64,000 nt of DNA, taken from positions 2,631 to 66,630 of the forward strand of contig CAZZHG010000005.1 of NCBI GenBank assembly GCA_964653655.1, in the 5' to 3' direction. Position 1 is the stretch's first letter. Each line of letters starts with the position of its first letter. The stretch is from an uncultured Pseudobdellovibrionaceae bacterium (GTDB lineage Bacteria; Bdellovibrionota; FAC87; UBA2466). Both the position numbers and the translations under genes were made by a program. This document shows positions 199 to 29,869 of the stretch, in pieces. The notes beneath the pieces were generated by a model. It ran no database searches and had not been told where the DNA came from. It saw only the letters and a list, made by a program, of their open reading frames with translations.

Positions 199-3100
199 AT
201 GCGCCTCGCCCGACTCTTTCTCTCTCTAATGATGTCAGTCGCGCCGCTTTCCGCGGACGAAGCGCACGATTCCGCGGCGACCGACGCCGGCTCGACCGAG
301 ATTACGACGGCCTATCCTTACGATCTCCAGCAGTGCCGCTTTCTGAAACGCGACAAGGGTTACTACTTTTTGGAGAAGGATTGGCACTTCCGCCAGACAG
401 GGCTCGATCTGTTTCGCAAGCATCCGCTCGTGAAGCGGGCGGATTACAGCAAGATTCAGCTGGGAATACTCGACACCCCGATTCGGGCGTCGGAAAACCC
501 GAAGGCCGGAAAACGGGTGAAGGCAGCTTCGAACGCCACCGCCGACGACCAGGACACCTTCCATGGAACTCACGTCGCGGGCATCGCCGCTTCGAAAACG
601 GTCGGCGTAAATCCGCGTTTGCCGCTAATTTCTCATCCGCTCGATTTTGAATGGACGATCTTCTCTCCGAGCATCGTAAACGCCTTGATCGCCGCCGGTA
701 AGGATCCCAAGACAAGAGTGGTTAACCTTTCCATCCACGCGCTCGAACACCCGCTCATCAAAGAGCAGGTGCTGGAGCTGACGAAGAAAGGCGTTTGGGT
801 CGTCTACGCCGCGGGAAACAACGGCGAAGTAAACGTCGGAGACAGCGCGCTTCTCAGAGAGCTGTCGCAGGTTCCCGAGCTCTTCTCCATCGGCGCGCTC
901 AACTACTTCGGAACCCCCGCATCATTCAGTAATCACGGCTCGAGCGTCGATTTCTACGCGCCGGGCGAGAGGATTCAGTCTCTTAACGCCGACTACGTTC
1001 CCGGAGAGAAAAAATCCAAAGCGAAGGCGGTGGCGGACGGAACGAGCATGGCGGCGCCTTACGCTTCGGCCGTACTTGCCACCATGCGGGCGATCGAGCC
1101 CTCTCTCACCGCGGAAGAAGCCTTGGAGCTCATCAAGGAGACGGCGATTCTCAGAGGCACGAAGGAAGTCGTGTCTCAGATTAACCCGTACCTCATCGTT
1201 TCCTATCTGGAGGCAATCCGTCTCGCCCGCCTGAAGCAGGAATGCAAGAAGCTGGTCTCCTGTTTTCCCGCGGCGAAGCGCGCCATTCAGGAGAAGGCGG
1301 AAGCTCTAGCCACGGCCCTCAAATCGCCGGAAAACAACAACTGCGACGAATGGGAGAAATTCCAAAATCAGCTTCGCCAAGGCTACTTCCTTACTCGCGG
1401 AAGAGATCCCCGTTTCAGCGGACCGCTCGTTCGCCTCTCCCAAAATGCCCCCCGGGGAAAAGCTGCGGAATCCGTTCTGTACACTTCGGGCGTCGCTCAG
1501 GAGCGGGCGCTCCCGGAGTTCATGGCCGATCACGGCGGCCTACTCGCAAAGGAAGAGGGAGAAGCCTCGAAAGCTTTCTTCGACGGCCGGCCGGACAAGC
1601 TGACCAAGGATGAGCTGGAGGTATCGTTCTCCAATCTCGACGCCATCTGGAAACGTTGTGAGAACTTCTTCTTCGTCCAAACCGACAATGGATTCTGCCA
1701 CGAGATGTTCCACGTCATGCCGAAGTCGTTGAAGCTCGCCTTGGCGAAAAGACTCGTCGATGCCAAGAAGCCGCTTTCGTCGATAAACCTGCTTCGAACC
1801 AACTTCCGGCTCTACGAGGACCCGGCGTCGCTACCCCTGCACAATGCGCTAGTGCCGCTCGCCATCGAGGGAATGGAGAAAAAGGTCCTCACTTCGACCG
1901 AAGCCGAGCACATGCTCGAAGAACTTCCGGAGCTTGCCGAGCAGGCCAGAAAGCAGGTGCTCCCCCTCCTGGAATCCTGCCTGAAAAGCCCCATCGCCGA
2001 GGAGCACAAGTACTGCCGCCGGTACATTGCCCGGGCCAAACTCTATCTGACCGCCGACTCCACGGCGGCGGACGACGAGAATGCCGCCAAGGAAATCGCC
2101 AAGGAATACGACATTGCCCTTCCCTACGCCGCTCTTCGAGTTCAAATCGAACGCGCCAGGGCCGGATTTTTCGACGAAGGAAAGATGGCGAACGTGTTGC
2201 TACGGCAACTCGCCGAGTGGAAGGAAATCGACGCGCCCTACACGAAGAAAGAGGAGAACCACGAGTTCGGAGCGCGCAAGGAGCTCTTCAACGACTGGCT
2301 GGAAGTGGCGAAGAGCCCCTTTTACGGCAAGCTAGTGGGCCAGATTCTCGCCAACCCGGCGAACCTGAAAGTCCTGGACCAGTTGCTTCACGGCAAAACG
2401 GCATTCCCCGATTCGGCGTGGGAAGGTTTCTTCCCGCTCGCCCAGCTGGAGCCGAAGGACCGCAAAGCCCTGCTGGAGGGGATCGCCGAACACTGGACCC
2501 TCAACGATTCAACGAGGGCGAAGCGCTACTTCACCCTGCTACAAGCGAACTCGGATCTACCGGAGGCGGCAAGCGTCCTCGAAGGTCTCAAGAAGAAGGA
2601 TCAGCCTACTCCCTTTTGGAAGGCGGCTCGGCGAAGTTACCTGCAACATGCCGCCGAAACGGCGACCGGTCCGACACCCGCTCTCGCGCAGCTTCTGGAT
2701 GAAACGCCGAAGAGCGAGCATTGGCTGACCCTGGCGTACCTCGACAAGGATTCGGCCGCCAAGGACCCCGAGTTCCTGAAACGTCTGGCGAAGATCTCTG
2801 AAGGAGCTCCCGCCGATTCCCTGCTCGCCACGGAGCTACTCGAGTGGATGAGCGTAAGCCTTCTGGGACAGCCCAAGGTCGAGACCAGCAACGCCATCGC
2901 GCCCATTCTGATTCCTAAGCTCGCCGAACTTTTTCGGGCGAGGGGACGATGGAACGAGAGCGGCGCACTCATTCCGGGCATCGGAACGAGTCTAAATCGG
3001 CTGTCCGAACGCCGGCCCCATCGATTCGCCCAATCGATTTTCCAGTTCGAAAAAATGCTCGCGGACGAAAAGTGGCTGACGGCGGACGACACACCAGAGG

Positions 3101-3552
3101 CGGATGACGAGCGGAAACTGGAGTCCATCTATCGGCGAAAAGATCTGTTTCTGGCGTTGAACACACTGACCAGCTCCGTCCAGGGCGACGCCTATCTGCA
3201 AAGCCACCCGAAAATGCTCGAATGGATGGTGAAGACGGCAACCGATCCCGATACGGACGAGAAGCTGGAGAATGCGGCACTCAATCCGACGCTGACATTC
3301 GCGTTGAAAGACAAAATCCCCGAAAAGTTGGGACCGGCGACCCGGACTCCCAACTGGCTCCTCGAAGTCACCTGGCGGCAACCCAAAGCTACTCCCAAGA
3401 TAGTTCAACTTTACAAGGAGAGCCGCCGCCCCGAACTTCTGCAATCTCTTCAACAGGCCCTCCTGCTGTTTCCCGAAAGACTTAGTTACGACGTGAAAAG
3501 GGAAATCGAAGGGCTTCCCGTTAGCGATCCGCCGATCGGAGGGGGCCCATGA
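199..3552 (+). CDS. Secreted subtilisin-like serine peptidase (S8 family) with a roughly 750-aa C-terminal extension of unknown function.
   Basis: Signal peptide MRLARLFLSLMMSVAPLSA. The S8 catalytic triad motifs are present in order: D in LGILDTPIR, H in HGTHVAGIAAS, S in GTSMAAPYASAVLA. The long helical C-terminal region matches no family I recognise. Confidence 0.8.
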   Translation: MRLARLFLSLMMSVAPLSADEAHDSAATDAGSTEITTAYPYDLQQCRFLKRDKGYYFLEKDWHFRQTGLDLFRKHPLVKRADYSKIQLGILDTPIRASENPKAGKRVKAASNATADDQDTFHGTHVAGIAASKTVGVNPRLPLISHPLDFEWTIFSPSIVNALIAAGKDPKTRVVNLSIHALEHPLIKEQVLELTKKGVWVVYAAGNNGEVNVGDSALLRELSQVPELFSIGALNYFGTPASFSNHGSSVDFYAPGERIQSLNADYVPGEKKSKAKAVADGTSMAAPYASAVLATMRAIEPSLTAEEALELIKETAILRGTKEVVSQINPYLIVSYLEAIRLARLKQECKKLVSCFPAAKRAIQEKAEALATALKSPENNNCDEWEKFQNQLRQGYFLTRGRDPRFSGPLVRLSQNAPRGKAAESVLYTSGVAQERALPEFMADHGGLLAKEEGEASKAFFDGRPDKLTKDELEVSFSNLDAIWKRCENFFFVQTDNGFCHEMFHVMPKSLKLALAKRLVDAKKPLSSINLLRTNFRLYEDPASLPLHNALVPLAIEGMEKKVLTSTEAEHMLEELPELAEQARKQVLPLLESCLKSPIAEEHKYCRRYIARAKLYLTADSTAADDENAAKEIAKEYDIALPYAALRVQIERARAGFFDEGKMANVLLRQLAEWKEIDAPYTKKEENHEFGARKELFNDWLEVAKSPFYGKLVGQILANPANLKVLDQLLHGKTAFPDSAWEGFFPLAQLEPKDRKALLEGIAEHWTLNDSTRAKRYFTLLQANSDLPEAASVLEGLKKKDQPTPFWKAARRSYLQHAAETATGPTPALAQLLDETPKSEHWLTLAYLDKDSAAKDPEFLKRLAKISEGAPADSLLATELLEWMSVSLLGQPKVETSNAIAPILIPKLAELFRARGRWNESGALIPGIGTSLNRLSERRPHRFAQSIFQFEKMLADEKWLTADDTPEADDERKLESIYRRKDLFLALNTLTSSVQGDAYLQSHPKMLEWMVKTATDPDTDEKLENAALNPTLTFALKDKIPEKLGPATRTPNWLLEVTWRQPKATPKIVQLYKESRRPELLQSLQQALLLFPERLSYDVKREIEGLPVSDPPIGGGP

Positions 3553-6672: not shown

Positions 6673-8655
6673 TCAACGGGAACCGCGCGGATTGGAGCGG
6701 CGTTCGGCGAGCGCGGCCCGGCCCATGAAGGCGAACAGCGTCTGAATGAGCTGATTGTTACGGCGGCTGCCCAGGTAATTTCCAATCAGTCCGAAGGTGA
6801 TGAGCAGACAGGTAAGCGTCGAAAGCACCTTCGCCCCTGAGTAGTCGTCCATCCAGTGGGCGAACAGGTGCAGCAGCAAAGCCCCGAGCAGCGGAACATA
6901 GCTCGTCAACCGGTTATAGAGGCGAGTCGTCTGCGCGACCATGCCCATCTCGATACGAGCTTGCGCCTGGACGTCCGACTCCTGTTTCCACAGCATGGGA
7001 TACAAGACCCGCACGCAGATGAACTGGATGAAGAGGCTCGAGTACCCGAGCGCCACGAGCCAGGCGAACAGGAACGAAACCATGAAATGCGCGAACACCG
7101 GGACCGCAAGCGCGCCCGAGTTCAGGTGGATGAAGAGCGGAAAGAGAACGCTCGAGGGCACCCAGCCTATCGTCGTAACGAGAGCGACCACCGCCGGAAG
7201 GCGAAGCACTCTCTTTCTCAAGAGCGCCTGCTTTTCCAAGGAGAGATCCGTTCGCTTCACGTACGGCAGAATTCCCCTGAGCGCCCAAACCCAGATGCCG
7301 AGACAAACCGCGTAAACGACCGGGTTGTAGACCACCATGAGCGATTTGAAATACGCCTGTTGCACCGACGACAATCGGCTCACAATCTCCAGCTGGTTGT
7401 ATAGGATGTTCACGGCGCTCGCCATTATCTGGGGCACGAGGCCGTAGAGAACGAGTCCGGTAAGAGGACTGCGAAAGCACACCGCCGCGAACCAGTTTCT
7501 GGGCGGCAGCTCCTTGTCGATGCGATAGCGCTCCAAAGCTCCCTTCAGGGCTTTCGCGAACGCACCGGCATCGGCAAATCTCTTCTCGGGATCCTTCTCC
7601 AGCGCCTTATCCAAAACGGTTTTCCAGGGCGCCTCGTCCCGGCAGGGGGGATCCCCGGCGAGGGCCAACCATTCCTTCAATACAATGGCGAGCGAGTAGA
7701 CGTCGGCGCGGCGATCGAGCTTTTTAATCGCGGCCGCCCGGTCTTCGGCGACAAACATCGCTTCCTGCTCGGGCGCCATGTATGCCTTCGTTCCGCCGAT
7801 TTGCCCGGAAGTACCGGCCACGTCTTCGAGCGAAAGAGACACATTGAAATCGCTGAGGAGAAACCGGCCGTAGAGATTGAGCAGGATGTTGGCCGGTTTG
7901 ACGTCGAGGTGAAGCACTCCCTGCTGATGGGCATACTGCAAAGTGTCCGCGAGCCGCGCTCCCGTCCACATCACCATCTCGAAGTAGTCGAGCTTCGCGA
8001 GCATCTCCCGAAACTGGAGACTCGACGGATGAAAGGGCACTTGATCCAGAATCTGCCCGTCGAGAATCTCGAGCACCGCCGCACCCGAGAGCTTTGATTT
8101 CGGAAACGCCCGAAGCTTTGTGAGAATCGTTTCGAGCGTCGCCCCGGGGATGTACTGCATGCACATGAAACGCAGGTTCCGGGCGGAGTCCACCGTGTCC
8201 GAGAACACTTTCACGATGTGATCGTGTTCCAGGGGCGCCATGAGGCGCGCCTCGCGGCCGGAGTTGCGGGACACTTTCAGAGCGACTTCCCGGCCGAGAG
8301 AGATTTGCCGGGCGAGATAGACATGGGCGATGCCGCCCCGGCCGAGACTACGCACGATCTCGAAGTCGCCGACGACGTCGCCCGTGGAGAACTCGGGAAG
8401 GCCTCCCTCGTCGAGCGCGATTCGTTCCAGCAGTTTCGGTCCGACGGGATTGGCGAGAAAAGTCCCCGAGCGCTCGTGGGACTCCGCGAGAGATTTCACT
8501 TCCTCGCTGAGGCGCGCGTCTTCGTGGCCGAGGGCCTCGAAGTACTCCGCCCTCGCCTCTTTACTCAAGGCGAGCGCGCGCTCGAGGCATTCGGCGACCC
8601 GATCCTGAAAGTCGGTGGCGACTTCAGTCTTTAGTTTGTTCTGTGCTGAGCTCAC
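6673..8655 (-). CDS. Membrane-anchored Ser/Thr protein kinase (Hanks-type), with a roughly 90-aa N-terminal extension and a C-terminal polytopic membrane domain.
   Basis: Kinase motifs are present: GxGxxG-like RSLGRGGIAHVY, the catalytic loop HLDVKPANILL, and the activation segment GTKAYMAPE. The C-terminal roughly 250 aa contains multiple hydrophobic helices. The start codon lies 32 bp inside the 3' end of the ECF sigma gene. Confidence 0.85.
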   Translation of the reverse strand: MSSAQNKLKTEVATDFQDRVAECLERALALSKEARAEYFEALGHEDARLSEEVKSLAESHERSGTFLANPVGPKLLERIALDEGGLPEFSTGDVVGDFEIVRSLGRGGIAHVYLARQISLGREVALKVSRNSGREARLMAPLEHDHIVKVFSDTVDSARNLRFMCMQYIPGATLETILTKLRAFPKSKLSGAAVLEILDGQILDQVPFHPSSLQFREMLAKLDYFEMVMWTGARLADTLQYAHQQGVLHLDVKPANILLNLYGRFLLSDFNVSLSLEDVAGTSGQIGGTKAYMAPEQEAMFVAEDRAAAIKKLDRRADVYSLAIVLKEWLALAGDPPCRDEAPWKTVLDKALEKDPEKRFADAGAFAKALKGALERYRIDKELPPRNWFAAVCFRSPLTGLVLYGLVPQIMASAVNILYNQLEIVSRLSSVQQAYFKSLMVVYNPVVYAVCLGIWVWALRGILPYVKRTDLSLEKQALLRKRVLRLPAVVALVTTIGWVPSSVLFPLFIHLNSGALAVPVFAHFMVSFLFAWLVALGYSSLFIQFICVRVLYPMLWKQESDVQAQARIEMGMVAQTTRLYNRLTSYVPLLGALLLHLFAHWMDDYSGAKVLSTLTCLLITFGLIGNYLGSRRNNQLIQTLFAFMGRAALAERRSNPRGSR

Positions 8656-13926: not shown

Positions 13927-13961
13927 AAAGCCGAAGGGGCAGTGCCCCTTCGGCTTTTTCC
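13927..13961. terminator. Bidirectional rho-independent terminator.
   Basis: AAAG-CCGAAGGGG-CAGTG-CCCCTTCGG-CTTTTTCC: a perfect 9-10 bp GC-rich stem with a 5-nt loop, flanked by an A-run and a T-run. It lies between convergent genes. Confidence 0.75.
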
Positions 13962-14652: not shown

Positions 14653-14807
14653 GATTTCCTTTCCCTGAACGCCCACCAGACCTCCCCCAAATAATATAAC
14701 TATTTCAGTTATGTATCGCCTGTTGCTTCCCAAGCGAAAACCCCTGACCCAAGTTGATCAAATTGCCGCATCGTGTTAGTCGTTTGGAACACGGTTTGGG
14801 GGGAGAC

Positions 14808-15080
14808 ATGGGAAAAAAATCTAAGAAGCTCGCGTATTGGCTTGTCGCCGTTTTAGTTACGCCTATGGCGAGGGCGTTTGATATTCCGACACAGTTCCAA
14901 ATCCGGCCAAAGAGAGGTCCTTTCAGCCAAGACAATTGCCATCATTGTCAGTGTGCGCGCCCTGATCGGTATCAAACGCAAAGCTTTGAGTTCCGAGCGG
15001 GAGCTCCGCTGATTCGATCAGGAAACTGGTCCGAGTCGAATGAATCTAAGAAGAAGGGCTTCATCAAAGAAGAGAAATAA
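14808..15080 (+). CDS. Secreted small Cys/His-containing peptide (candidate precursor or signalling peptide).
   Basis: A GGGGGGAGA RBS precedes an ATG at 14808. The Sec signal MGKKSKKLAYWLVAVLVTPMARA/FD has an AxA cleavage site. The roughly 65-aa mature part contains DNCHHCQC. It is the first gene of the low-G+C island. Confidence 0.5.
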   Translation: MGKKSKKLAYWLVAVLVTPMARAFDIPTQFQIRPKRGPFSQDNCHHCQCARPDRYQTQSFEFRAGAPLIRSGNWSESNESKKKGFIKEEK

Positions 15081-15085
15081 TCGGA

Positions 15086-16588
15086 ATGAAGATCCAAAGA
15101 ACGAGGAGATCGATTCTCTTTGCAACGATTGGATCTGTTGTAGTGGGACTCTCAGTGAGTAGTCTGCGAGAAAAACCAATTCAGGAAAAAAGACTGCGAG
15201 CGATCTATCCGATCGGCATGCTCAGGCGAGACGAACGTCTCTTCGACCCCACGAATCTATGGTCAGTTTATCACTACTACCTACAAGAAAATCTCGCCAG
15301 TTGCCTAGTGATCGATTCGACTAAAACCACCTCAGGTTATGAACCAAATCTAGCGACGTCTTGGGAACAAATGAGTCCGACCCAATGGCGCTTCCATATT
15401 GGAAAAGAATTGCGTTGGTCAGATGGTTCGGAGCTTTCTGGCAAACACCTAGAGGAATACTTTCTGGCCCTCTCCCATCGAAACTCGAGACATCTAGTGG
15501 CGCTTAAGTCGCTCGTGACCGCTCAATGGGACGAAGATGCGAGAACTCTAGAATTAGCTTTTTCAAGGCCGACATCACAAACTTTGTTGCACGAGCTTTC
15601 TCTTTCCGATGCCGCTATTCTTCACCCTACGAATGTCGATAGTTCCTGGTCCATCACGTCGGGACGATACTCCGTAAGTCATTTTGATGTCGAAAAGCAG
15701 ACTCTCGAACTGCGGGTAAACACCTATCATCCGAAGTACGAGACAAATTCACCAAACGCCGTGGAGCTATTCCAACCGAAGGAAACCAATTGGAGCCTCG
15801 CGAAAGAAAACGCCGACCTCTGGCTAGTGCCAACCCCTTCATTCTCAGAAGAATTTCGACGACGAGTTACAAGTGCCCCAGCTAGGATAGAAGGCCCCCC
15901 CACAGTAATCTACTATTTCGAGTTCAATCTTAACCACCGGTTGGGAAAATCTACAGAAGCCCGAGTCGAATTTGCTTCAGCGATTCACGAGTTCTTCGAC
16001 AAAGCTGTTCCAAAAATGCCGGAAGCGACTCCGGACCGCCAATTCGCTGCACCCGGCTACCCATCGAGACTTCAAAACTCTGCAGTACAAGAAATCGAAC
16101 CGAAAGCACCTATTTCCATTCTGAGTGGAGAGACGATATCGATATCGATGTACTACTTCGGCGAGGAATACACGTGGCTTTCCACTGAATTTGCCTCCTT
16201 CCTAAGAAATAGAGGAGTAAACGCGACACTCTCCTACAATCGCTATAAGAAAAATGAGCCGCAAGATTGGTTTGCACGTGCTTCAATGTTTAGTGGAAAC
16301 CAGAGAGATTCTGTAGGGTCGTGGAGTTTCCTTCTCTCAAATCCGGACATCGATGTCGGGAGAAAATACCCTGATCTAACCGCCGATCTTAAGAAGGCCT
16401 CGGAAACGTCAGTCGCTTCAGAGAGAGAAAGCATTCTTCAGAGAATTCACTCCCGATTCATTGAACGTGCTCTAGTTGTGCCCTTCCTTCTTGAACGACG
16501 TTACGCAATACACTCTGAAAGGATCTCCCTAGAGCATTGGAACGAATTTGATCTGCGTTCACGTTTCTATGACATTACATGGAAATGA
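15086..16588 (+). CDS. Periplasmic solute-binding protein, family 5 (peptide/nickel-type SBP), Tat-exported.
   Basis: N-terminal TRRSILF Tat-like motif followed by a hydrophobic segment. The segment LATSWEQMSPTQWRFHIGKELRWSDGSELSGKHLEEYF matches the conserved SBP_bac_5 core (L.ESWE....T..F.LRKGV.F.DG..F.A.DV). Length 500 aa. Confidence 0.65.
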   Translation: MKIQRTRRSILFATIGSVVVGLSVSSLREKPIQEKRLRAIYPIGMLRRDERLFDPTNLWSVYHYYLQENLASCLVIDSTKTTSGYEPNLATSWEQMSPTQWRFHIGKELRWSDGSELSGKHLEEYFLALSHRNSRHLVALKSLVTAQWDEDARTLELAFSRPTSQTLLHELSLSDAAILHPTNVDSSWSITSGRYSVSHFDVEKQTLELRVNTYHPKYETNSPNAVELFQPKETNWSLAKENADLWLVPTPSFSEEFRRRVTSAPARIEGPPTVIYYFEFNLNHRLGKSTEARVEFASAIHEFFDKAVPKMPEATPDRQFAAPGYPSRLQNSAVQEIEPKAPISILSGETISISMYYFGEEYTWLSTEFASFLRNRGVNATLSYNRYKKNEPQDWFARASMFSGNQRDSVGSWSFLLSNPDIDVGRKYPDLTADLKKASETSVASERESILQRIHSRFIERALVVPFLLERRYAIHSERISLEHWNEFDLRSRFYDITWK

Positions 16589-16598
16589 AAGTGCCGCC

Positions 16599-17429
16599 AT
16601 GAAGACTTTCACAACCAGGTACGTTGCAACCTATGGCCACCTTTCCATCGGCAGCAAATGTACTCTGCAGCTAGACACCGGGGGTGCGGCAATCGGTTAT
16701 GGAGTTGGAACGACTCTCAGAACTGCGTCCAGAAGAGCCTTCTCTGAAGCTTGGGAAAGACACGTCATGAGTAACATGGCGTGTTTTGATCAGTCGATTA
16801 CCTCATCGAACGGATTCGCTGCGCATTGGTCGAAGGAAACGGCCCTAAGAAACAGTCTAGAAGAGTTGGTTGAACGCCGGATGGTGCTGCGAGCGTGGTC
16901 AACGGGTAGAGGATGGAACAGATCTGGTACGCTCGATTTGTGTGCCCGAGCGATTGTTTGGAAGGCCGAAGCCCAACACTGGAGAATTAACTGGTATCAG
17001 ATTCAAGTACCCGCCCAAAATCACCGCGTTCTCGTCCTGTTGGCCAGACACAAGACTCTTGGCGCATACTTCGATTCCGCCTCGAACGCACCCGGCTCCG
17101 CGCGAAAGCTCGCGCAAGGATTAGATCTATATCTGAACCGTATCGAGCGTTCCCCTTCTTTAGCGGAGCTTCCCGACTTTGCCACACCTGCCTCTCACCT
17201 GGCCTTCTATCGCAATCCCAGCAATCTTCAGGCCTTTGATTTCCTCGAAAACACATCTTCATGTGAAACACTCCCCGATGAGAGAACGAAATCACCCCCA
17301 CAGCAGAGCATCGTAAGCAACTCTCCTGGAATGCCGTATGTCGCCCGTTCGTGGAATAATGACTGGCCCCAACTGAGTTGGGGCGCGAAGAGCGGAGGAG
17401 CGAACTCGTGGCCTCACCCCCTGGCATAG
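16599..17429 (+). CDS. YcaO-superfamily protein, unusually short (about 277 aa).
   Basis: GYGVGTTLRTASRRAFSEAWERH matches the YcaO ATP-binding signature G(K)GxTxxxAxxSAxxEAxER. The start at MKTF lies immediately after the SBP stop. The alternative listed start at 16548 overlaps the SBP gene. Confidence 0.6.
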   Translation: MKTFTTRYVATYGHLSIGSKCTLQLDTGGAAIGYGVGTTLRTASRRAFSEAWERHVMSNMACFDQSITSSNGFAAHWSKETALRNSLEELVERRMVLRAWSTGRGWNRSGTLDLCARAIVWKAEAQHWRINWYQIQVPAQNHRVLVLLARHKTLGAYFDSASNAPGSARKLAQGLDLYLNRIERSPSLAELPDFATPASHLAFYRNPSNLQAFDFLENTSSCETLPDERTKSPPQQSIVSNSPGMPYVARSWNNDWPQLSWGAKSGGANSWPHPLA

Positions 17430-18655
17430 GTCTCTACAAATCCCGGCAGGTCTGGGCGTGGACCACATCTACGCTACTAGTTTTGTCGCTGATAGGGGTA
17501 CTACTCTGGACACAACACCTAAGACATTCATTCGGACGAATCCTTGAATCAGAGACGAAGCAGGCCATAGAAGCGACGCGGGAAGCAGTTCAGCACGGCA
17601 ACTTTCGGGCGTTTGTCGAATTGCTGGGTACAAGATTTTCCGACCCATACGTGAAAGTAGGATCCGCTTTCGGAAATCTCGAGATGGGCAGTCCAAGTGT
17701 TCTGCCAATCTGTAGTATTCAATCGCTAGAGAGTACATCGATCAAGGTTTGCGGGCCTTCCCAAATACCTTGGAGTCAGGCTTCTATCATTCTATCTATA
17801 TTCCTCCTGCTTTCCTTCGGTGCCCGCTTAGTTCTGACGACTATCGAAGAAAAAGCCATCGCGTCAATGACCTCGACTTTTGCACACCTTGAGCTTCCAA
17901 ATCCCCTCCTAAGCGGGATGACCCCGTTGTTAGCCGGCGTGAGTGACTTGAGACGGTCGGTAGTAGACCTTCAGGAACGTGATCGACGGCTATCGAAAAA
18001 GGCTCAGCTCACAGAAACAGCCCAAAAGGTCGCCCACGATATTCGCTCCCCTCTGTCGGCGCTCAAGGTTTTGGCCTCGTCACCAGAGGAACTCAACAAG
18101 GAAGAAGGAAGGAATCTCTTCCGGATGGCTACCGCCAGACTTGTCGGAATTGTAGACGACTTTCGAGAAAAATCTGGAGACGACCTGGAGATCGTTGACT
18201 TGGTTCCTCTTCTTTCAAGTGGGGTTCAAGAAAAGCTCCTGGAACGAAGTAACCGGCGAGATGTCGCTCTAACGTTGAATATCGAAGCAAAGGAACTCAA
18301 CTGTCGCGTTGAATCCAAGCTCTTTCAACGAGTGTTGTCTAACCTACTCAACAACTCGTTCGAAGCGATACATAGCCGAGGTACCATTCAGGTCACCGCA
18401 GCTGTTCTAAAAGATTCAAAGATTAGGATCGAAATAGTTGATGATGGCGTAGGCATACCAGCCACTATTTTAAACATATTGCGCAAGGAACAGATCTCTT
18501 ACGGAAAAGTGAAGGGCTCAGGATTGGGGTTCAATTCCGCTAGAGAATGGATTCTGTGCTGGGGCGGAAGCATTTCGATCTCTTCCACAGAAAACGTCGG
18601 AACTAGCGTTAGAATCGAACTCCCTAGTAGCGACCTGCAAAGAGCGGGATTCTGA
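17378..18655 (+). CDS. Sensor histidine kinase with two N-terminal TM helices and a roughly 110-aa periplasmic loop.
   Basis: HisKA H-box AHDIRSPLSALKVL. HATPase_c N-box LSNLLNNSFEAI and G-boxes DDGVGIP and GSGLGF. The TM helices are LLVLSLIGVLLW and IILSIFLLLSFGARLVL. The start codon is uncertain and the listed start overlaps the YcaO gene's 3' end. Confidence 0.8.
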   Translation: MGREERRSELVASPPGIGLYKSRQVWAWTTSTLLVLSLIGVLLWTQHLRHSFGRILESETKQAIEATREAVQHGNFRAFVELLGTRFSDPYVKVGSAFGNLEMGSPSVLPICSIQSLESTSIKVCGPSQIPWSQASIILSIFLLLSFGARLVLTTIEEKAIASMTSTFAHLELPNPLLSGMTPLLAGVSDLRRSVVDLQERDRRLSKKAQLTETAQKVAHDIRSPLSALKVLASSPEELNKEEGRNLFRMATARLVGIVDDFREKSGDDLEIVDLVPLLSSGVQEKLLERSNRRDVALTLNIEAKELNCRVESKLFQRVLSNLLNNSFEAIHSRGTIQVTAAVLKDSKIRIEIVDDGVGIPATILNILRKEQISYGKVKGSGLGFNSAREWILCWGGSISISSTENVGTSVRIELPSSDLQRAGF

Positions 18656-18696
18656 CCGGTCCCACCAAATCGTCTATCGAGGTAGATGTTCAGTTC

Positions 18697-18743
18697 AGAA
18701 AAAAAGAGAATGGGCGGCCCCCGTCACCGGAGAGCCGCCCATC
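18697..18743 (-). terminator. Rho-independent terminator for the minus-strand gene 18769..19581.
   Basis: On the minus strand, the hairpin GGGCGGC-N15-GCCGCCC at 18711-18742 is followed by TCTCTTTTTTT. Confidence 0.55.
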
Positions 18744-20608: not shown

Positions 20609-21724
20609 TCGCAATTCCGTCAGAACCGCCTCAGCGAGGAGGCGATTGCCCTCCTCGTTGAGGTGGCCGATGGAGTCCGTGTAGATCGTCTGCGATTGCC
20701 GGCGAAACATCTGAGTGAGATCGGTGAAACGCTCGCCGTTTCGCTTCAGCAAACTTCCGCGCTCGCGAAGCTTCGGATAACCGGCGGCAATCACCTCGGC
20801 GTAGATACTGTCCTCGCGCGCGGCTTCCTCCTCGGAGAGAAGCTTCGAGCCCTTCAAATGCTGATTGGGCTGGAGGAAGTGCAAGTAAGCGATGCCGTGC
20901 TTCTTGCAAAACTCTCCCAGTAACTCGGAGCTGTCGCCCCAGATACGAACGGCCTCGCTCAGGTGAGCGGTCCAGGCGGTGGACCACTTCGCGCGGTTTC
21001 GCCGCTCGTAAGAGACGTTCAGAAAATCCCGCGCTCTCCTATCGAGAGCGGCAAGGGCCCTTTCCTTTCCGTTCGAAGCCGCAATCCGAAGCGCCTTACC
21101 CGTGTTGGGAAGAAGATAGCGCGAAAGCTGTTTCGCCTTCACATCGGCAAACGCCACCGCCCGAAGGCGCAGATAGATTCCCGAAAAGAAAGGCTCCGAC
21201 CGCAAAGCCGAGCGGGTCCAGTCGCGGGGGAACGCAAGCGGAGTTCCGTTCGGAAGATTCTCCGATAGCGCTCCCGCAAGCTCGTTGAAGCCGTCCAAAT
21301 TGACGACGATATCGGGGTAACGGCCCAGCACTCCCGCGTAAGTGAGCGCCATGAGCTGCTGCGGTTGTTTTAGCCCGCCCTTTGCGACCACGCTGAGCTT
21401 CGTCTTTCCCCAAAGTTTCGAAAGCTCGCCTTCCAGATACTCACGCTTCGTCTCGTTCAGGTAGTAGGCGACCGAAGCCCCCGTGAGCAGAACGTGAACC
21501 TTCTCGTCGCCGCGTTCCGGGACCGTGAAGCCCTTTTCCAAATCACTCTTTCCCTGCTTCATCGGCAATCCCGTGTAGGGGTGCATGGGATAGAGGAAAC
21601 TCGACTCGAAGTCCCCTTCGGAAAAATGAACGGCAATGCGCCTGAGAAAACCCAACCGAAGTACCGCAAACGATCCCGCCTCCAATAGAACGAGACCGAG
21701 GGCGAGACTTACTAGAAAGCGCAT
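20531..21724 (-). CDS. N-terminally membrane-anchored hypothetical protein, possibly an SGNH/AlgJ-like fold.
   Basis: N-terminal helix FLVSLALGLVLLEAGSFAVL. A C-terminal DSIGHLNEEG resembles the SGNH block V DxxH motif. The assignment is weak. Confidence 0.5.
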   Translation of the reverse strand: MRFLVSLALGLVLLEAGSFAVLRLGFLRRIAVHFSEGDFESSFLYPMHPYTGLPMKQGKSDLEKGFTVPERGDEKVHVLLTGASVAYYLNETKREYLEGELSKLWGKTKLSVVAKGGLKQPQQLMALTYAGVLGRYPDIVVNLDGFNELAGALSENLPNGTPLAFPRDWTRSALRSEPFFSGIYLRLRAVAFADVKAKQLSRYLLPNTGKALRIAASNGKERALAALDRRARDFLNVSYERRNRAKWSTAWTAHLSEAVRIWGDSSELLGEFCKKHGIAYLHFLQPNQHLKGSKLLSEEEAAREDSIYAEVIAAGYPKLRERGSLLKRNGERFTDLTQMFRRQSQTIYTDSIGHLNEEGNRLLAEAVLTELRSLTNEVGRRANSRRVVLGVESVRNF

Positions 21725-21996
21725 TAGAGAGAAAAGCAGCTGAGCGATTTATAGGTCTGATTCCAGACCGCATGCTGGTCGGTTTGGCAGCATTGAGTCC
21801 GGTGATAGACGGGACTCCAGGCGCAGCTATCGCCGGACTGCGACTTGAAGCAGCGAATCCGGTTGTAGGTCTCTTCCCAAATAGCCTGCTCGTCTGCCTT
21901 GCAACAGATCACCCTGTTGTGAAGCGGGTTCCACTCGCAACGGTTCGCGAGCGCCGGAATCGAAACCAAAAGCGTCATCAGGATAAGAATTTTCAA
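21724..21996 (-). CDS. Secreted Cys-rich small protein with an internal tandem repeat.
   Basis: Signal peptide MKILILMTLLVSIPALA. Two roughly 35-aa repeats share a C-W-x-P-x-x-(N/H)R-x-x-CC-x-(A/T)D-x-x-A-(I/V)W-x-(E/Q)TY-x-x-(I/L)-x-CF pattern, each with four Cys. Its stop overlaps the downstream start in TAATG. Confidence 0.6.
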   Translation of the reverse strand: MKILILMTLLVSIPALANRCEWNPLHNRVICCKADEQAIWEETYNRIRCFKSQSGDSCAWSPVYHRTQCCQTDQHAVWNQTYKSLSCFSL

Positions 21997-24683: not shown

Positions 24684-25919
24684 TTACTTCACGCCGTAGC
24701 GCACGCTGCACGTGCCCGAACCACCGGGGCCGGTTACGGTGCCCGTCGCCGTGAACACCCCGGACTCCACCGGGGTAATCGTCTTCGTGCCGCCCAGCGC
24801 AGGCATCGACTGTCCGATGAGTAGCGCGCTGCTCACCTGTCCCGACGTTTTCATCGTGAGCACCAACGACTCACCGAGACGAATGAAGCTCGGATTGGCG
24901 GCGAGGGCGCACAGCGGCGACTCCACCACCGGGCCGGTGATGTTGACGTAGATCAGCGTCGCGTCGGCGCCGAGCGGGCTTTTCGCGGTCAAAGAAACCC
25001 GGAAGCTTCCCGTCACGGTCTTCGGCGGCGCGATCGTAAGCGTCATGCCGTTGATCTCCATCCACTCGGGAGCGCTCGGATCGAGGTAGAACTTGAGGCC
25101 CGCGATGTTGGGCATGTCGAGCAGCATCGGAAGCTTCTGCTCGTAAACTTCGCCCGACTCCACGCTGTAAGAGTAGAGGCTCTTCTTGAAGTGCGGCTCT
25201 CCCGGCGTGACGCTCTCGCAGGTCGAAGTGACGCCGCAGATGTCCACGTTCTGCGCCTTCGCCGTATCCTTCAGAAACGACTGCACCGACGGCAAAGCGA
25301 GATGGAGGCTGTAGTTGGTGTCCTGGATGTTGCCCTTGCTGTTGATGCCGACCACGCGGAACTTGCCGGCTTCCTTCGCCATCGTCGGCCCGCCGGAGTC
25401 TCCGAAGCACAGAGCGCCGCCGTTCACACGCTTCGAGACGAAATCGCTCTGGGAGAAGGACAGCACGTCCGACTCACCCATGCGAAGCACGCCGTCGTTG
25501 CCGCCGCCGCCGCCCGGAGTCGTGCAGCCGAAGCCGAGCAGAAAGACTCTGTCGCCGACATTCACGGAGCCGCCGATGGAGGCCGGCACCAGTCCTGAAA
25601 TCGCCTGGGGCGTGATGATGAGCCCGACATCCTTGTCCTGGGACGGGTAGTCGGGATGACGGAACCCTTTGCCGACGTAAGTGCGGCCGTCGACCGAGAA
25701 CTCGGCCGAGCCGCCATCCTTCACGCAGTGGGCGGCGAGGATCAAGGCGTTCGGACCGACCACGGTCGCCGTGCAGCTCGCGCCGTCGGCCCTCACCTGA
25801 ATCACTTCGCCGAACATGCCCTTCGGCACTTCGACGCCGTTGATGATGCGCTCGCCGCTCGCTTGAGCGGTCGACGCGAGTATCGTCGATAGAATCACGG
25901 CTGTTTTGAAAAGCTTCAT
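24684..25919 (-). CDS. Secreted trypsin-like serine peptidase (S1 family) with a C-terminal extension.
   Basis: Start at the internal Met with an AGGAGA RBS. Signal peptide MKLFKTAVILSTILASTAQA. Motifs IINGVEV, His in LILAAHC and Ser in CFGDSGGP are present. The C-terminal roughly 150 aa is an extra domain. Confidence 0.8.
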   Translation of the reverse strand: MKLFKTAVILSTILASTAQASGERIINGVEVPKGMFGEVIQVRADGASCTATVVGPNALILAAHCVKDGGSAEFSVDGRTYVGKGFRHPDYPSQDKDVGLIITPQAISGLVPASIGGSVNVGDRVFLLGFGCTTPGGGGGNDGVLRMGESDVLSFSQSDFVSKRVNGGALCFGDSGGPTMAKEAGKFRVVGINSKGNIQDTNYSLHLALPSVQSFLKDTAKAQNVDICGVTSTCESVTPGEPHFKKSLYSYSVESGEVYEQKLPMLLDMPNIAGLKFYLDPSAPEWMEINGMTLTIAPPKTVTGSFRVSLTAKSPLGADATLIYVNITGPVVESPLCALAANPSFIRLGESLVLTMKTSGQVSSALLIGQSMPALGGTKTITPVESGVFTATGTVTGPGGSGTCSVRYGVK

Positions 25920-26111
25920 TTGGTTTCTCCTTCGTTCGAGTTGGTTTTCAATCTCTTCATGATCAAATCTGACACGAAAAATTCTTCCGCCGGAAAATGG
26001 GTCCAAGTTGCCCGGAACAAAAGTTAAGGACTCGACTTCTGGTGACCGAAACCGCGGCGGGTTCATCGCCCTCGCCGCCGCCGTGGCATACTGATGCTTT
26101 AAAGGAAGAAG

Positions 26112-27101
26112 ATGATCGCAATCGCGCTGAAAGTAATGCTGCTCACCGCAATGGCTCAGGCGCCCGCGGTTCCGCCCTCCGCCGACGACCCTTACCGTCC
26201 GTCCGGTGAGGACGCCCTGATGAAAACCGGCCGCGACAAGGGAGAGCCCATCGACTTGGACTGGCGCCGCACGAGTGTGCAGCTCGACGCCGCCCAGGCG
26301 AAACAACATTTCGCGGATTTCGACGCCTCGAAGGAGCTCGCCCTCGCCAACGTGAAGCACTTCGATGAGTGGTACGTGGCCCGCCTCCCTTTAGAGGGGC
26401 TCGAGGGCGTGAAGATGACCCGCTACCGCATTCTTAAGCAGCTTCCGGTAAGCCACGGCGGCCTGAGGTTCACCATGAGGAAGGGATTCAAGGTCCGCCT
26501 CGTTCCTCAAGTGAACGGATCGAAGAGCCCGCGGCTTGAGTTCGATTCGCTGGGTTTCGGCATTTACGCCGTCGGAAAGAAGGGCCGCAAGTTCGGCATG
26601 GAAAATAGCGCCAACAAAGACCTGGTGAGCACTTACATGTTCTATACGCCGGCGGAGCTGATGGAGCGCTTCAGGCAGGACACCAAGAACAACGACATGA
26701 AGGAGATTCCCCTCAATCAGATGGAGGCGGCCGACACCCAGGCCCTGCTTCAGCACCTGGCCAAGAGCGCGACCGAGACGAAATACGAAGAGGTCTATGG
26801 GATGTTCCTCAATAACTGCGTGCACCGGCTGCTCGCCCTTATAAAGGAGAGCCGCCGTCCCTCTGGCAAGCCCGCGCGCAATGCCCTTATAAGGAAGACC
26901 GTGAAGACCGCCATCAATCCGGTGAGCGGGGTGCTCGATAGCGCCCGCGATGCTTCGGGCGATTTGCTTCCGACGGGGCTTACGAACGGGTTCTCACCCA
27001 TAATCACGCACGAGCTTTACCGGATCGGGGTGACCTCCTACTTCGCCGCCTGGTCCGACGTGCTGAAGGATCCAGAGCTCAAGTCCCTCAAGCAGAAGTG
27101 A
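26112..27101 (+). CDS. Secreted hypothetical protein.
   Basis: Signal peptide MIAIALKVMLLTAMAQA. Total length 329 aa with no family I recognise. Confidence 0.55.
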   Translation: MIAIALKVMLLTAMAQAPAVPPSADDPYRPSGEDALMKTGRDKGEPIDLDWRRTSVQLDAAQAKQHFADFDASKELALANVKHFDEWYVARLPLEGLEGVKMTRYRILKQLPVSHGGLRFTMRKGFKVRLVPQVNGSKSPRLEFDSLGFGIYAVGKKGRKFGMENSANKDLVSTYMFYTPAELMERFRQDTKNNDMKEIPLNQMEAADTQALLQHLAKSATETKYEEVYGMFLNNCVHRLLALIKESRRPSGKPARNALIRKTVKTAINPVSGVLDSARDASGDLLPTGLTNGFSPIITHELYRIGVTSYFAAWSDVLKDPELKSLKQK

Positions 27102-27373
27102 TCCGCTCCCTGACAGCCCGCTTGGACGTAGACCACTTTGTATACAGTCTAACCGCGCGAATTTCCGCCCTTCCACCGGTGAACTAACTTTAGCCGCCGT
27201 CCTTTCAGCCACTTTTCACGATCTGTACGGGCCGCCCAAACGAACTACACCTTTCGGGATTGAAGCCCGATTCCGGGTACCTACCTTTACTTTCCTGGAA
27301 ACTCCGCGCGGGTGGTACGGGGCTTGCTCTAACAGCAGGTAGTAACACCTTGGTTTTCGTCTTGGAGTGCAAC

Positions 27374-29869
27374 ATGGACTTTCGTCGCTACATCCTTATC
27401 GCGTTTTCCATCGTCCTCATCTCCGCTTGCGGAAAGAAGCCCGGCCTCGAAGGCCAAGCGGCGGCGCCTTCCGACGGCTGCGCGATGGTCGAAGGACCTA
27501 ACTTCAGCAACTTCAAAGCTTGTTACAAAGACATGGACGGCCTCGCCGTGTTCCAAGGCGATATCGTCCTCGGCAGCGTCGAGCAGCTCCAGATGCGCAC
27601 CGCGGTCGATTCCGACGCCGCGACTTCCTTGAGCTCTCATGAAAAGGATCGCTTCTGGCCGAGCAGCCTCATCCCGTACACGGTGGAAGGCGGCTTGAGC
27701 CTCTCCGCGATTATCACCGCGCAGACGGACCTCACGGTCCGCGCCGGAATCATTTTCGTTCCCCGCTCGATTCAGACGGATTACATCGCTTACGTTCCCA
27801 CCAGCGATCCGGCGATCTGCGGGCTTTCCCACATCGGCCGCCAGGGAGGCCGTCAGGAAGTGAAAATCGGCATCAACTGCCAGAACGATCGCACGATTCA
27901 GCACGAAACGATGCACGCTCTCGGCTTCTGGCACGAGCAATCGCGCCCGGACCGCGACGATCACATCCGCATCCGCTGGGAAAACGTGAAGGATCGCTTC
28001 CTCTCCGATTTCGACAAGATGCCCGTTCTCGCCGAAGGCCTCGGCGCGTACGACTTCGCATCGGTCATGCATTACCGCCGTAACGCCTTCTCCATGAACG
28101 GAGACGACACGATTCAGGCGGACACCGAAGCCCACAACGCCCAAATCGGCACCGGCACCAAAGCCTCCGACGGCGACATCCTGGGCCTCAAGGCGATTTA
28201 CGGTTCCGAAACCGAAGTGACTTTCAACGCCGCCGAAACGGAAGCCACCATCAAGTTCAAGACCCCGGTGTATATCTCGAGCCGCGTCCGCTACGGCCGC
28301 ACGCGCGCGAACCTCGACCAATCGGTCCTGGAAAGCCCTTTGAAGCTCAGCCACGAAGTGAAGCTCACCGGCCTCACGCCGAAGACGCGTTACTTCTTCA
28401 AAGTGGTCACGGGCTACGATCTTTCTGCGCAGCCGGCCTACGGCATCACCCGCTCGTTCATCACGGACAGAACGGCGCCGCAGATCCTCGATCCGCGCTT
28501 TACGGCGGACGGCAGCGAAATCGAATTCCGTCTCTCGACCGACGAAGACACGATTGCGTCGGTCACCTACTACCAGCTGCCCGACAAGTCGGATAAGCGG
28601 GTCGCGCGCGACTCGGCTTTCGGCAACGTGCACTACATGAAGTTCAGCGTCGGCGCCGGTAACTGGAAGTTCGTCCCCACCGTCATCGACGAAGCGGGTA
28701 ACGAAACCATCGGCGCGGTCCATCACTTCAGCAACGACGGTACGGCTCCGATCATCAGCAACATCAACGTGACGAACCGTACGGCGACCACCGCCACGAT
28801 CAACTGGACGACCAACGAAGCCGCCTCCACGATTGTGGACTACGGCACGTCGTCGGGTAACTTGAGCACCCGCCGCACGGGCGCGGCCGCGGCTCTGAGC
28901 CACTCGGTTGCTCTGACGGGTCTCTCGTCGAACCAGACTTATTATTACCGGGTCACCAGCGTGGATCTGGGCGGACGCTCCACGAGCTCGGCCATTCTCA
29001 CGCTCTCGACGGACTTCTCGGCTCCGGTCATCAGCGGCGTCGGCTCGAGCAACGTCTCGGGTACGGGCGCTCGGATCTCTTGGACCACGAATGAGGTTTC
29101 CGACTCGAAAGTCATCTGGGGAACCAACTGCGCGAGCTTCCCGAACACCCAGTGGCTCGCGGGCGACGTGACGTCGCACGTGGTGGACATCTCGGGTCTC
29201 AACCCGACGACGTTCTACTGCTACAAAGTGGTTTCGAAGGATCCGCAAGGCAACGAGAGCACCTCGGCTGCCGCGACGTTCACGACGACGGCCGCTCCGC
29301 CGCCCGTTCTGACCGCCGCCCTGGTCTCGGTCGCCTCTTCGGGCGTCACGATCACCTGGAACACGGATATCTCGTCGAGCTCGGTCGTGATTTACGGAAC
29401 GTCCTCGGGCAGCTATCCGAGCACGGCTTCGAGCGCGGGCAACACCACCGCTCACTCGGTGACGATTGCGGCGGGCAGCCTGGTTCAGGGCCAGACGTAC
29501 TACTTCAAGGTCCGGTCCGCGAGCCCCTCGGGCGCGACGGCCACCGGCCCCGAGCAGAGCTTCATCTTCCAGGACACGGTCACCGTGTCGGTTGCGCTTA
29601 ACGGGTACGGCCAGTACTGGTACTTGCCGCGCTACGTGACGGCGACGTCGAACAAAGCCAACTCGGGCTCGACGACGATGACGTTGAAGTTCATCTGGCG
29701 CTCGGGCAACCAGGAGTTCGACTCCATCCCGATGACCTACAATGCGGCGGCCAACAACTACACGGCGGAAATCCCGTTCGGATACTCGTACAACTACATC
29801 TATCCGGGCTCGGCGTACCTCCGCGTGGTTTCTTCGCTCGGCGGTAAAGCCGAATGGAAGAACTACTAA
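27374..29869 (+). CDS. Lipoprotein astacin-family zinc metallopeptidase (M12A) with multiple C-terminal fibronectin-III-like repeats.
   Basis: Lipobox LISAC. The zinc motif HETMHALGFWHEQSRPDRDDHI follows the HExxHxxGFxHExxRxDRD pattern, and the Met-turn SVMHY is present. Downstream are at least 4-5 repeats ending in (T)YY(F/Y)(R/K)V-type strands (TRYFFKVV, TYYYRVTS, TFYCYKVVS, TYYFKVRS). Confidence 0.8.
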   Translation: MDFRRYILIAFSIVLISACGKKPGLEGQAAAPSDGCAMVEGPNFSNFKACYKDMDGLAVFQGDIVLGSVEQLQMRTAVDSDAATSLSSHEKDRFWPSSLIPYTVEGGLSLSAIITAQTDLTVRAGIIFVPRSIQTDYIAYVPTSDPAICGLSHIGRQGGRQEVKIGINCQNDRTIQHETMHALGFWHEQSRPDRDDHIRIRWENVKDRFLSDFDKMPVLAEGLGAYDFASVMHYRRNAFSMNGDDTIQADTEAHNAQIGTGTKASDGDILGLKAIYGSETEVTFNAAETEATIKFKTPVYISSRVRYGRTRANLDQSVLESPLKLSHEVKLTGLTPKTRYFFKVVTGYDLSAQPAYGITRSFITDRTAPQILDPRFTADGSEIEFRLSTDEDTIASVTYYQLPDKSDKRVARDSAFGNVHYMKFSVGAGNWKFVPTVIDEAGNETIGAVHHFSNDGTAPIISNINVTNRTATTATINWTTNEAASTIVDYGTSSGNLSTRRTGAAAALSHSVALTGLSSNQTYYYRVTSVDLGGRSTSSAILTLSTDFSAPVISGVGSSNVSGTGARISWTTNEVSDSKVIWGTNCASFPNTQWLAGDVTSHVVDISGLNPTTFYCYKVVSKDPQGNESTSAAATFTTTAAPPPVLTAALVSVASSGVTITWNTDISSSSVVIYGTSSGSYPSTASSAGNTTAHSVTIAAGSLVQGQTYYFKVRSASPSGATATGPEQSFIFQDTVTVSVALNGYGQYWYLPRYVTATSNKANSGSTTMTLKFIWRSGNQEFDSIPMTYNAAANNYTAEIPFGYSYNYIYPGSAYLRVVSSLGGKAEWKNY

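Follow-up and report, generated by a model that had tools for sequence, protein, structure and literature searches.

The window analyzed here is a stretch of 64,000 nucleotides (contig CAZZHG010000005.1, positions 2,631 to 66,630) from the genome of an uncultured Pseudobdellovibrionaceae bacterium (assembly GCA_964653655.1). Between positions 14660 and 18700 of this window lies an island, assigned to no strand and recognizable by a shift in G+C content and in G+C content at third codon positions (GC3), which carries a cassette of four genes. All four are located on the plus strand and encode, in this order, a small precursor peptide, a family-5 solute-binding protein (SBP5), a short protein of the YcaO superfamily (mini-YcaO) and a sensor histidine kinase. 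The peptide and SBP genes are separated by 5 nucleotides and the SBP and YcaO genes by 10 nucleotides. The YcaO and kinase genes overlap by 22 nucleotides, the GTG start codon of the kinase falling within the YcaO codons for Ser-Trp. This arrangement agrees with an earlier note on this DNA, which had described four co-oriented, tightly packed or overlapping genes.

Comparison with homologous loci indicates that the four genes form a conserved unit. When 1.84 billion representative proteins were searched with phmmer, we obtained 168 matches for mini-YcaO. Nearly all full-length matches had 260–330 residues and the best identity to the window protein was 40% (49% for the SBP). On these search results, mini-YcaO appears as a small and distinct family. 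Neighborhoods were drawn from metagenome contigs, species-representative genomes and relatives of the host. Here, we found SBP5, mini-YcaO and a kinase of the same subfamily adjacent to each other in every locus with enough sequence, which amounts to about 23 distinct loci besides the window. The co-occurrence that the earlier note had proposed to look for is thus seen in about two dozen other loci. The usual gene order was SBP5-YcaO-kinase, usually with overlaps, and the kinase gene was upstream or divergent in six loci (L001, L003, L009, L025, L028, L029). All-against-all clustering of the flanks revealed no other widely conserved gene except small receivers in Elusimicrobiota-type loci, and the neighborhoods examined contained no E1-like or RiPP recognition element (RRE) partner (RiPP, a peptide synthesized ribosomally and modified after translation), TfuA, dehydrogenase, ATP-binding cassette (ABC) permease or dedicated exporter. 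The pairwise identities of SBP, YcaO and kinase correlated with r = 0.93–0.95, which suggests that the three proteins are inherited as a unit; since related loci share labels in this correlation, it speaks for co-inheritance and not for physical interaction.

The named hosts were mostly metagenome-assembled genomes of Bdellovibrionota, several of Elusimicrobiota and one labeled Armatimonadota, and the clusters of the ESM Atlas agreed with this distribution. We did not find the cassette in a genome of the same genus (100% complete). Of four genomes from another genus in this family, three carried it, with identities of 36–38%. Restriction-modification, toxin-antitoxin, conjugation or recombinase genes were often located beside it. 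In genome G024 (L028, C8:5000–17000), no peptide ORF (open reading frame) was found and the YcaO gene contained a single in-frame TGA at codon 225, and the SBP and kinase ORFs stayed open with full-length matches. This single case fits a split between sender and receiver genes. Apparent decay of sender genes was observed in relatives from the host's family, namely in G024 (L028) and in G014 (L025/L030). A literature search of incomplete coverage, which is no proof of novelty, retrieved no paper in which a YcaO was combined with both a histidine kinase and a solute-binding protein and none on YcaO in Bdellovibrio in this sense. This outcome is in line with the earlier note, which knew of no described system with this combination.

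The encoded proteins

The peptide gene (14808–15080, plus strand) encodes 90 residues and its ATG follows the ribosome-binding site GGGGGGAGA. Residues 1–23 (14808–14876, plus strand) resemble a signal peptide with a basic n-region, a hydrophobic core and an A-R-A cleavage motif; here and in the homologs, signal peptides were judged by eye from the translation. The same n/h/c layout with an AxA-like site was found in most homologous peptides. A small ORF with a signal-peptide-like N-terminus was located directly 5′ of the SBP gene in 22 loci, the window included. It can be seen from the comparison of these peptides that the dipeptide Asn-Cys is present in 21 of the 22 sequences, vs. 68 of 1208 (5.6%) control small ORFs of similar length from the same loci. 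In the window, this family-wide dipeptide is Asn43-Cys44 within the motif DNCHHCQC (residues 42–49; 14931–14954, plus strand). It sits 2–46 residues from the peptide C-terminus, usually after an acidic or small residue, and apart from it the cassette peptides could not be aligned between clades. A second Cys located 3–8 residues downstream was common in Bdellovibrionota loci, where it could possibly form a disulfide loop, and was absent from most Elusimicrobiota-type peptides. The cassette thus has a short precursor gene that adjoins a modifying enzyme and carries a conserved modifiable core residue, which is the arrangement expected of a RiPP locus.

The nearest relative of the window cassette (L033) has a SBP that is 49% identical and a G+C content of 0.51, which is close to that of the island. 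Its peptide keeps RPK.xPF..DNC.HCQCARP while the long tail diverges, a pattern that delimits the core and speaks for the ORF being translated. Both peptides carry a Cys/His cluster, DNC(H/E)HCQC, but the His and the additional Cys residues were not conserved across the family. The secreted Cys/His peptide of the earlier note is therefore correct for the window, with its signal peptide and DNCHHCQC, and for the family the description has to be narrowed to Asn-Cys.

A sigma-54 element of the GG-N10-GC type was not found 5′ of the window peptide gene. Good matches to sigma-54 promoters were seen only in the Elusimicrobiota loci L020 (4057–4072) and L021 (4050–4065), in which an element TGGCACG-N4-GTGC lies about 75 nucleotides 5′ of the peptide gene. 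These elements, together with the NtrC-type activators flanking the cassettes of L031 and L032, hint at sigma-54-dependent autoregulation in some lineages.

Mini-YcaO (16599–17429, plus strand) consists of 276 residues and has no partner protein. It matched the Pfam model PF02624 with 31.3 bits (cut-off 25.7); the match spans only model positions 113–231 of 325 and a genome-wide scan agreed with this result. The AlphaFold2 (AF2) model had a predicted local distance difference test score (pLDDT) of 94 and a predicted template modeling score (pTM) of 0.90, and its C-terminal tail was confidently modeled. Foldseek returned McbD, the YcaOs of M. kandleri and M. jannaschii, Escherichia coli YcaO, LynD, TruD and MusD with a probability of 1.00 and template modeling (TM) scores of 0.45–0.64 by query. 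Clusters of the AlphaFold database (AFDB) that are named YcaO reached TM scores of up to 0.73, and the structural neighbors included SagB-fused and bacteriocin cyclodehydratase proteins. With a Pfam score above cut-off and a YcaO fold, the identity given to this protein in the earlier note is well founded.

Among 90 family members, the motifs E51-A-W-E54-R55, S-N72-G-F-A-A (N72-G-x-A-A) and E90-L-x-E93-R94, several aromatic residues and a C-terminal P-H-P-x-A were invariant or near-invariant, as was Cys22. The acidic residues expected for nucleotide and Mg2+ binding are present, with E51/E54/R55 and E90/E93/R94 being invariant or at least 90% conserved. In a profile search of the sequences in the Protein Data Bank (PDB), these motifs aligned with EAIER and EIIERD of MJ1094, with residues 178–209 of E. 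coli YcaO and with the two motif helices of TruD and LynD; we take them to correspond to E75/E78 and E199/E202 of the E. coli enzyme. The C-terminus of azoline-forming YcaOs has the pattern PxPxP. That of mini-YcaO reads W-P-H-P-L-A and has the pattern PxP; P273, H274 and P275 are each conserved in at least 90% of the family. Azoline-forming YcaOs are reported to end typically in a proline-rich stretch, and standalone YcaOs that work without a partner have been described for bottromycin biosynthesis (PMC8442711). The NCBIfam SagD model gave 14.9 bits for mini-YcaO (cut-off 219). Neither a fused nor an adjacent E1-like, Ocin-ThiF or RRE partner was detected in any neighborhood examined, and for the thioamide partner TfuA there was no PF07812 match in the 93%-complete genome or in the neighborhoods. 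By its sequence features, mini-YcaO resembles a standalone azoline-type YcaO and lacks the partner of canonical cyclodehydratases for thiazole/oxazole-modified microcins (TOMMs).

The host genome contains a second YcaO-domain gene (G000 contig C39:13909–15336; 475-residue ORF, Pfam YcaO 32.8 bits). This gene has no SBP or kinase partner and its product no BLAST similarity to the island YcaO. A nearby 1041-residue ORF with multiple transmembrane segments is presumably a resistance-nodulation-division (RND)-type efflux gene.

The SBP gene (15086–16588, plus strand) encodes 500 residues that matched Pfam SBP_bac_5 with 45.9 bits (cut-off 32.4). The AF2 model (pLDDT 88) matched MppA, OppA, AapF, NikA and DppA in Foldseek with E-values of 1e-24 to 2e-29 and TM scores of 0.65–0.77, in agreement with the bilobed cluster-C fold of this family. 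The N-terminus (MKIQRTRRSILF...) forms a hydrophobic signal or anchor helix (residues 2–26) with RTRRSILF, which resembles a twin-arginine translocation (Tat) motif. The earlier note had called this protein a Tat-exported SBP5. The family assignment stands, and so does the Arg-Arg pair in the window, its nearest relative and some others, but the pair was not conserved across the family. A signal or anchor was present in most SBP homologs, and one clade would gain the signal only via a frameshift. When 19 cassette SBPs were aligned, 42 columns were invariant at an overall identity of 25–37%, suggesting that some feature of the ligand is precise and constant. Genes for an ABC permease or ATPase were absent from every cassette neighborhood examined, and the lack of a linked permease points to a role of the SBP in signaling and not in transport. 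A predicted complex of SBP residues 31–500 (with alignment) and the mature peptide had a score of 0.00 and a pLDDT of 24 for the partner, which speaks neither for nor against binding.

In the clade with the putative frameshift (L002:6540–6632, L004:1310–1400, L013:4375–4463), the annotated SBP ORF has no signal peptide. Here, an ATG overlapping the peptide stop opens a 15–16-codon ORF in another frame (e.g., MTRGGFKSRALLLVFF), which ends with GTT TTT TTT TAA. A -1 slip on T TTT TTT would fuse this short ORF with the SBP and with a hydrophobic stretch that is conserved and in frame. These three diverged loci, from three different assemblies, all keep the T9 run and the stop after it, and the internal ATG has its own AAGGA ribosome-binding site. 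The tract is a candidate for programmed -1 frameshifting, transcriptional slippage or a phase-variable site, by which the SBP would alternate between being signal-anchored and being cytoplasmic.

The kinase gene (17408–18655, plus strand) encodes 415 residues from GTG 17408 or 425 residues from an alternative TTG at 17378. GTG 17408 is probably the start codon since homologous loci show the same 22-nucleotide overlap. The protein consists of a first transmembrane helix, a periplasmic loop of about 85 residues, a second transmembrane helix, an H-box and an ATPase domain (HATPase_c 62 bits), and this layout confirms the two-helix sensor kinase with a periplasmic loop proposed in the earlier note. 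The hidden Markov model for HisKA gave only a weak match (18 bits, cut-off 26.9). The motifs H220-D-I-R-S-P-L, N322/N326, D355-x-G-x-G and G-x-G-L-G were invariant or nearly so, with H220-D-x-R-x-P as the invariant part of the H-box, and in the periplasmic loop R77, C112 and C125-R-P were invariant among 14 cassette kinases. NtrC-type sigma-54 regulators flank the cassette in L031 (436–1902), in L032 (9760–10998) and on the P0004 contig, and single-domain receivers were found near L018, L020, L022, L024 and L027, which are Elusimicrobiota-type loci. The cassette kinases of Elusimicrobiota are larger, with 650–750 residues (L018:6783–8819, L020:6783–8828, L021:6762–9011), and contain a domain with weak resemblance to a receiver, scoring below the Pfam cut-off, as well as an extra C-terminal region of 130–200 residues that matched no family.

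Composition and borders of the island

The G+C content of positions 14700–18660 was 0.494, which is about 6 standard deviations (SD) below the mean of the host genome (0.5985; SD 0.0164 among windows of equal length). Only 0.035% of 8520 genome windows were as poor in G+C. The host genome comprises 4.86 Mb on 163 contigs and is 93% complete. A 500-nucleotide profile dropped from 0.54–0.62 outside to 0.47–0.53 inside the island, between about 14.5 and 18.7 kb. These data uphold the compositional shift seen in the earlier note, although its value of more than 60% for the flanks was slightly high in view of the 0.54–0.61 measured there; the AT-rich string quoted there maps to about 15175–15200. 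The GC-biased third positions that it had ascribed to the flanking genes were also recovered, with GC3 values of 0.46–0.56 for the four island genes vs. 0.68–0.77 for nine genes from the flanks or elsewhere in the window.

The left border of the island can be placed after a membrane-protein gene that ends at 14652, since the GC3 of this gene (0.73) is host-like. At the right border, a consensus scan predicted a terminator in the form of a G+C-rich hairpin (18709–18743, no strand assigned), which separates the kinase gene from a convergent gene downstream; its stem comprises 14 bp, and a T-run adjoins the stem on the minus strand. However, the promoter and terminator scan of the region, including hairpin-type sites, gave counts no higher than those of shuffled sequence and thus this call is weak evidence. 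No convincing direct repeats, tRNA gene or integrase were found at the island borders, a Pfam scan of the flanking ORFs (9.8–24 kb) gave no matches, and none of the four cassette proteins matched a defense-system model of PADLOC. In the same-genus genome G001, homologs of the flanking genes had only 46–53% protein identity and were located on different contigs, and no insertion site was definable in an empty-site comparison. Island DNA was detected only in sequencing runs of one freshwater metagenome sample, which is probably its source, and no RNA run was listed among the datasets holding it. Taken together, the patchy distribution of the cassette and the base composition support horizontal acquisition of the island. 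The earlier note had raised this possibility, and the absence of the cassette from the same-genus genome and the low identities (at most 40% for YcaO and 49% for the SBP) fit it as well.

Upstream of the island, just past a gene ending at 13897, there is a perfect 15-bp inverted repeat with a 1-nucleotide loop (AAAGCCGAAGGGGCA / TGCCCCTTCGGCTTT, 13927–13957), which is likely to be the terminator of this host gene. In the DNA around the island (199–3552, 24684–26360, 27260–29869, 49243–51270, 6673–8655, 40247–42319), several large ORFs matched protease families, namely subtilase S8, trypsin-like, astacin (together with fn3/PhoD-N domains) and S41 tail-specific protease, and a Ser/Thr protein kinase and a LigD are encoded there as well. 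This protease load would suit a predatory or proteolytic lifestyle. A 90-residue ORF (21724–21996, minus strand) matched no family; its product has a signal peptide and, in tandem, two half-repeats rich in Cys (C.W.P...R..CC..D..A.W...Y....CF).

Proposed function and rival explanations

We consider it about an even bet (probability of roughly 0.5) that the cassette is a horizontally acquired, self-contained unit that makes and senses a modified peptide signal. In YcaO cyclodehydration, the nucleophile is canonically a Cys, and the carbonyl that becomes activated belongs to the residue before it. In the proposed mechanism, cytoplasmic mini-YcaO would use ATP to activate the backbone amide of Asn-Cys, and the Cys thiol would attack, most likely giving a thiazoline. 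Since there is no dehydrogenase, the ring would stay a thiazoline and not become a thiazole. The housekeeping Sec machinery would then export the peptide and signal peptidase would trim it, which would explain the missing genes for a dedicated exporter or protease. The membrane-tethered or periplasmic SBP5 would capture the modified peptide and activate the kinase via its periplasmic loop. Finally, the kinase would phosphorylate an unlinked response regulator; in loci with a linked one, this is either a sigma-54 activator of the NtrC type or a receiver with a single domain. The hypervariable sequence around Asn-Cys and the co-divergence of the three proteins suggest many specificity types, as in pherotype systems.

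Several points weigh against this proposal. To our knowledge, there is no precedent for a YcaO substrate whose leader is a Sec signal peptide, and export could outrun modification. No RRE or E1-like recruiting partner was found that would account for recognition of the peptide by an enzyme of 276 residues, and it could just as well be the SBP or the kinase that recognizes the invariant Asn-Cys. As the earlier note had stated, no response regulator adjoins the window cassette; the sole receiver domain on the contig lies about 34 kb away. The cassette of L025 (genome G014) looks intact, and its peptide has Arg in place of Cys (CGT instead of TGT), so that it ends with ASNRNN where that of its relative G004 ends with ASNCNF. 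In L009, no peptide ORF was found at all. Finally, every cassette locus comes from metagenome assemblies.

One rival explanation is that mini-YcaO modifies the SBP before its export or the kinase, or regulates the kinase in the cytoplasm, and that the Asn-Cys peptide serves the sensor in unmodified form, either as its ligand or as an accessory subunit. YcaOs acting on proteins do exist, as McrA thioglycine formation (PMC5589413) and modification of ribosomal protein uL16 (PMC13063428) indicate. Such a role would be consistent with the missing RRE or leader-binding partner, with translational coupling of the YcaO gene to the kinase gene by the overlap and its tight linkage to the SBP gene, and with the 42 invariant SBP columns and the near-invariant Cys22. 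As a Sec substrate, the peptide may also leave the cytoplasm fast. On the other hand, the sole conserved peptide feature is a Cys after a fixed residue, which is the type of site used by YcaO cyclodehydratases. Neither TfuA nor another sulfur partner for protein thioamidation was found, and in G024 decay seems to have affected the peptide and YcaO genes jointly, with the SBP and kinase genes being retained. We regard a protein substrate as unlikely.

Alternatively, the modified peptide might chiefly be an effector, such as a metallophore, a chalkophore or an antimicrobial, with SBP and kinase monitoring the peptide or its metal-loaded form for uptake, immunity or production. Methanobactin operons pair a modified Cys peptide with the SBP5 MbnE, the SBP5 family includes NikA, which was among our structural matches, as well as metallophore binders, and many YcaO products are antibiotics. 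The cluster DNC(H/E)HCQC in the window peptide and its nearest relative would suit metal binding. However, it is Asn-Cys and not the His or the extra Cys that is conserved, and for this reason the metallophore option mentioned in the earlier note loses weight. Moreover, genes for an ABC permease, a TonB-dependent receptor, an exporter or immunity were not conserved beside the cassette, and signaling is suggested by the fact that its constant partner is a kinase. An effector function seems quite improbable. Least probable of all is that the window cassette is an inert or decaying passenger, recently transferred without its regulator and functionless in its host: the unadapted base composition, the lack of a linked response regulator, the detection of the DNA in runs of one freshwater sample only and the decay in related genomes (YcaO stop and peptide loss in G024, Cys to Arg in G014) would fit this idea, but the four ORFs are intact with all family-invariant residues present, a linked regulator is missing from most of the homologous cassettes as well, and 54 receiver domains are encoded in the host genome.

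Returning to the peptide signal, the cassette would join a YcaO RiPP pathway to a binding-protein-dependent two-component sensor, and there is a fair chance that it constitutes a new signaling class. A more specific proposal is that of an unrecognized class of cell-to-cell signaling in diderms, in which a Sec-exported peptide modified once at Asn-Cys by a partner-less YcaO is perceived by a dedicated SBP5/kinase receptor, and which spreads from genome to genome on islands, has diversified into many specificity types and is found mainly in predatory Bdellovibrionota. This proposal is tentative and, in our view, somewhat more doubtful than not. Modified-peptide pheromone systems are well known in Gram-positive bacteria and rare in diderms, and we know of none that uses a YcaO. 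If the proposal is true, a minimal YcaO (about 276 residues, no partner, one site) would become available as a model for amide activation and substrate recognition without RRE, and a Sec signal peptide would double as RiPP leader. Bdellovibrionota, whose social and predatory regulation is poorly understood, would gain a candidate channel for communication or kin recognition that is carried on mobile DNA. With four genes on 4 kb, the cassette is small enough for direct testing in E. coli.

Comparison with known systems

With the azoline-forming YcaOs (McbD, SagD/BalhD, LynD/TruD) and the bottromycin YcaOs, mini-YcaO shares the superfamily, the fold and the two acidic nucleotide/Mg motifs, and its C-terminus contains prolines, although in the shorter pattern PxP. 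As in the azoline-forming RiPP pathways, its gene adjoins a short precursor gene with a conserved Cys. However, it has only about 276 residues, whereas its structurally solved relatives have 360–780. In contrast to azoline RiPP pathways, the cassette has no E1-like/Ocin-ThiF/RRE partner, dehydrogenase, protease or exporter and only a single target site, its leader looks like a Sec signal peptide, and its constant neighbors are a binding protein and a kinase instead of biosynthetic genes. Methanobactin operons (MbnA, MbnBC, MbnE) likewise encode a backbone-modified Cys peptide together with a family-5 binding protein. They differ in using DUF692/MbnBC instead of a YcaO, in TonB-dependent uptake, in regulation by sigma/anti-sigma factors and in their copper-binding product.

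Among signaling systems, staphylococcal agr (AgrD/AgrB/AgrC/AgrA) and ComQXPA of Bacillus also bring together genes for a small precursor in which a Cys is essential, for an enzyme dedicated to its modification and for a histidine kinase of the membrane, and in both cases, as in the cassette, signal and receptor are hypervariable and have diverged together. In the cassette, the enzyme is a YcaO and not AgrB or ComQ, a SBP5 is added, export is putatively via Sec and the regulator is mostly unlinked. Its hosts are diderms (Bdellovibrionota, Elusimicrobiota), and its function in signaling is putative.

The use of a SBP5 fold for signal capture has counterparts in PrgZ, a pheromone-binding OppA homolog of the mobile element pCF10, and in AapF, which binds the signal HEHEAA (PDB 7kz9) and was among the best structural matches of the cassette SBP. 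Like PrgZ, the cassette is often associated with mobile DNA, in its case with mobile or defense islands. PrgZ and AapF pass their ligands to an ABC importer for an intracellular receptor, whereas no permease is linked to the cassette. In LuxP-LuxQ, TorT-TorS and GltB-GtrS, as in the cassette, a periplasmic solute-binding protein is encoded beside a kinase with two transmembrane helices and without an ABC transporter, an arrangement implying that the binding protein presents its ligand to the kinase; binding-protein-dependent sensor kinases are an established mechanism (PMC8050422). What sets the cassette apart from these systems is that its binding protein belongs to family 5, the class of peptide and metallophore binders, and that its operon also includes the genes for the presumed ligand and for the enzyme that would modify it.

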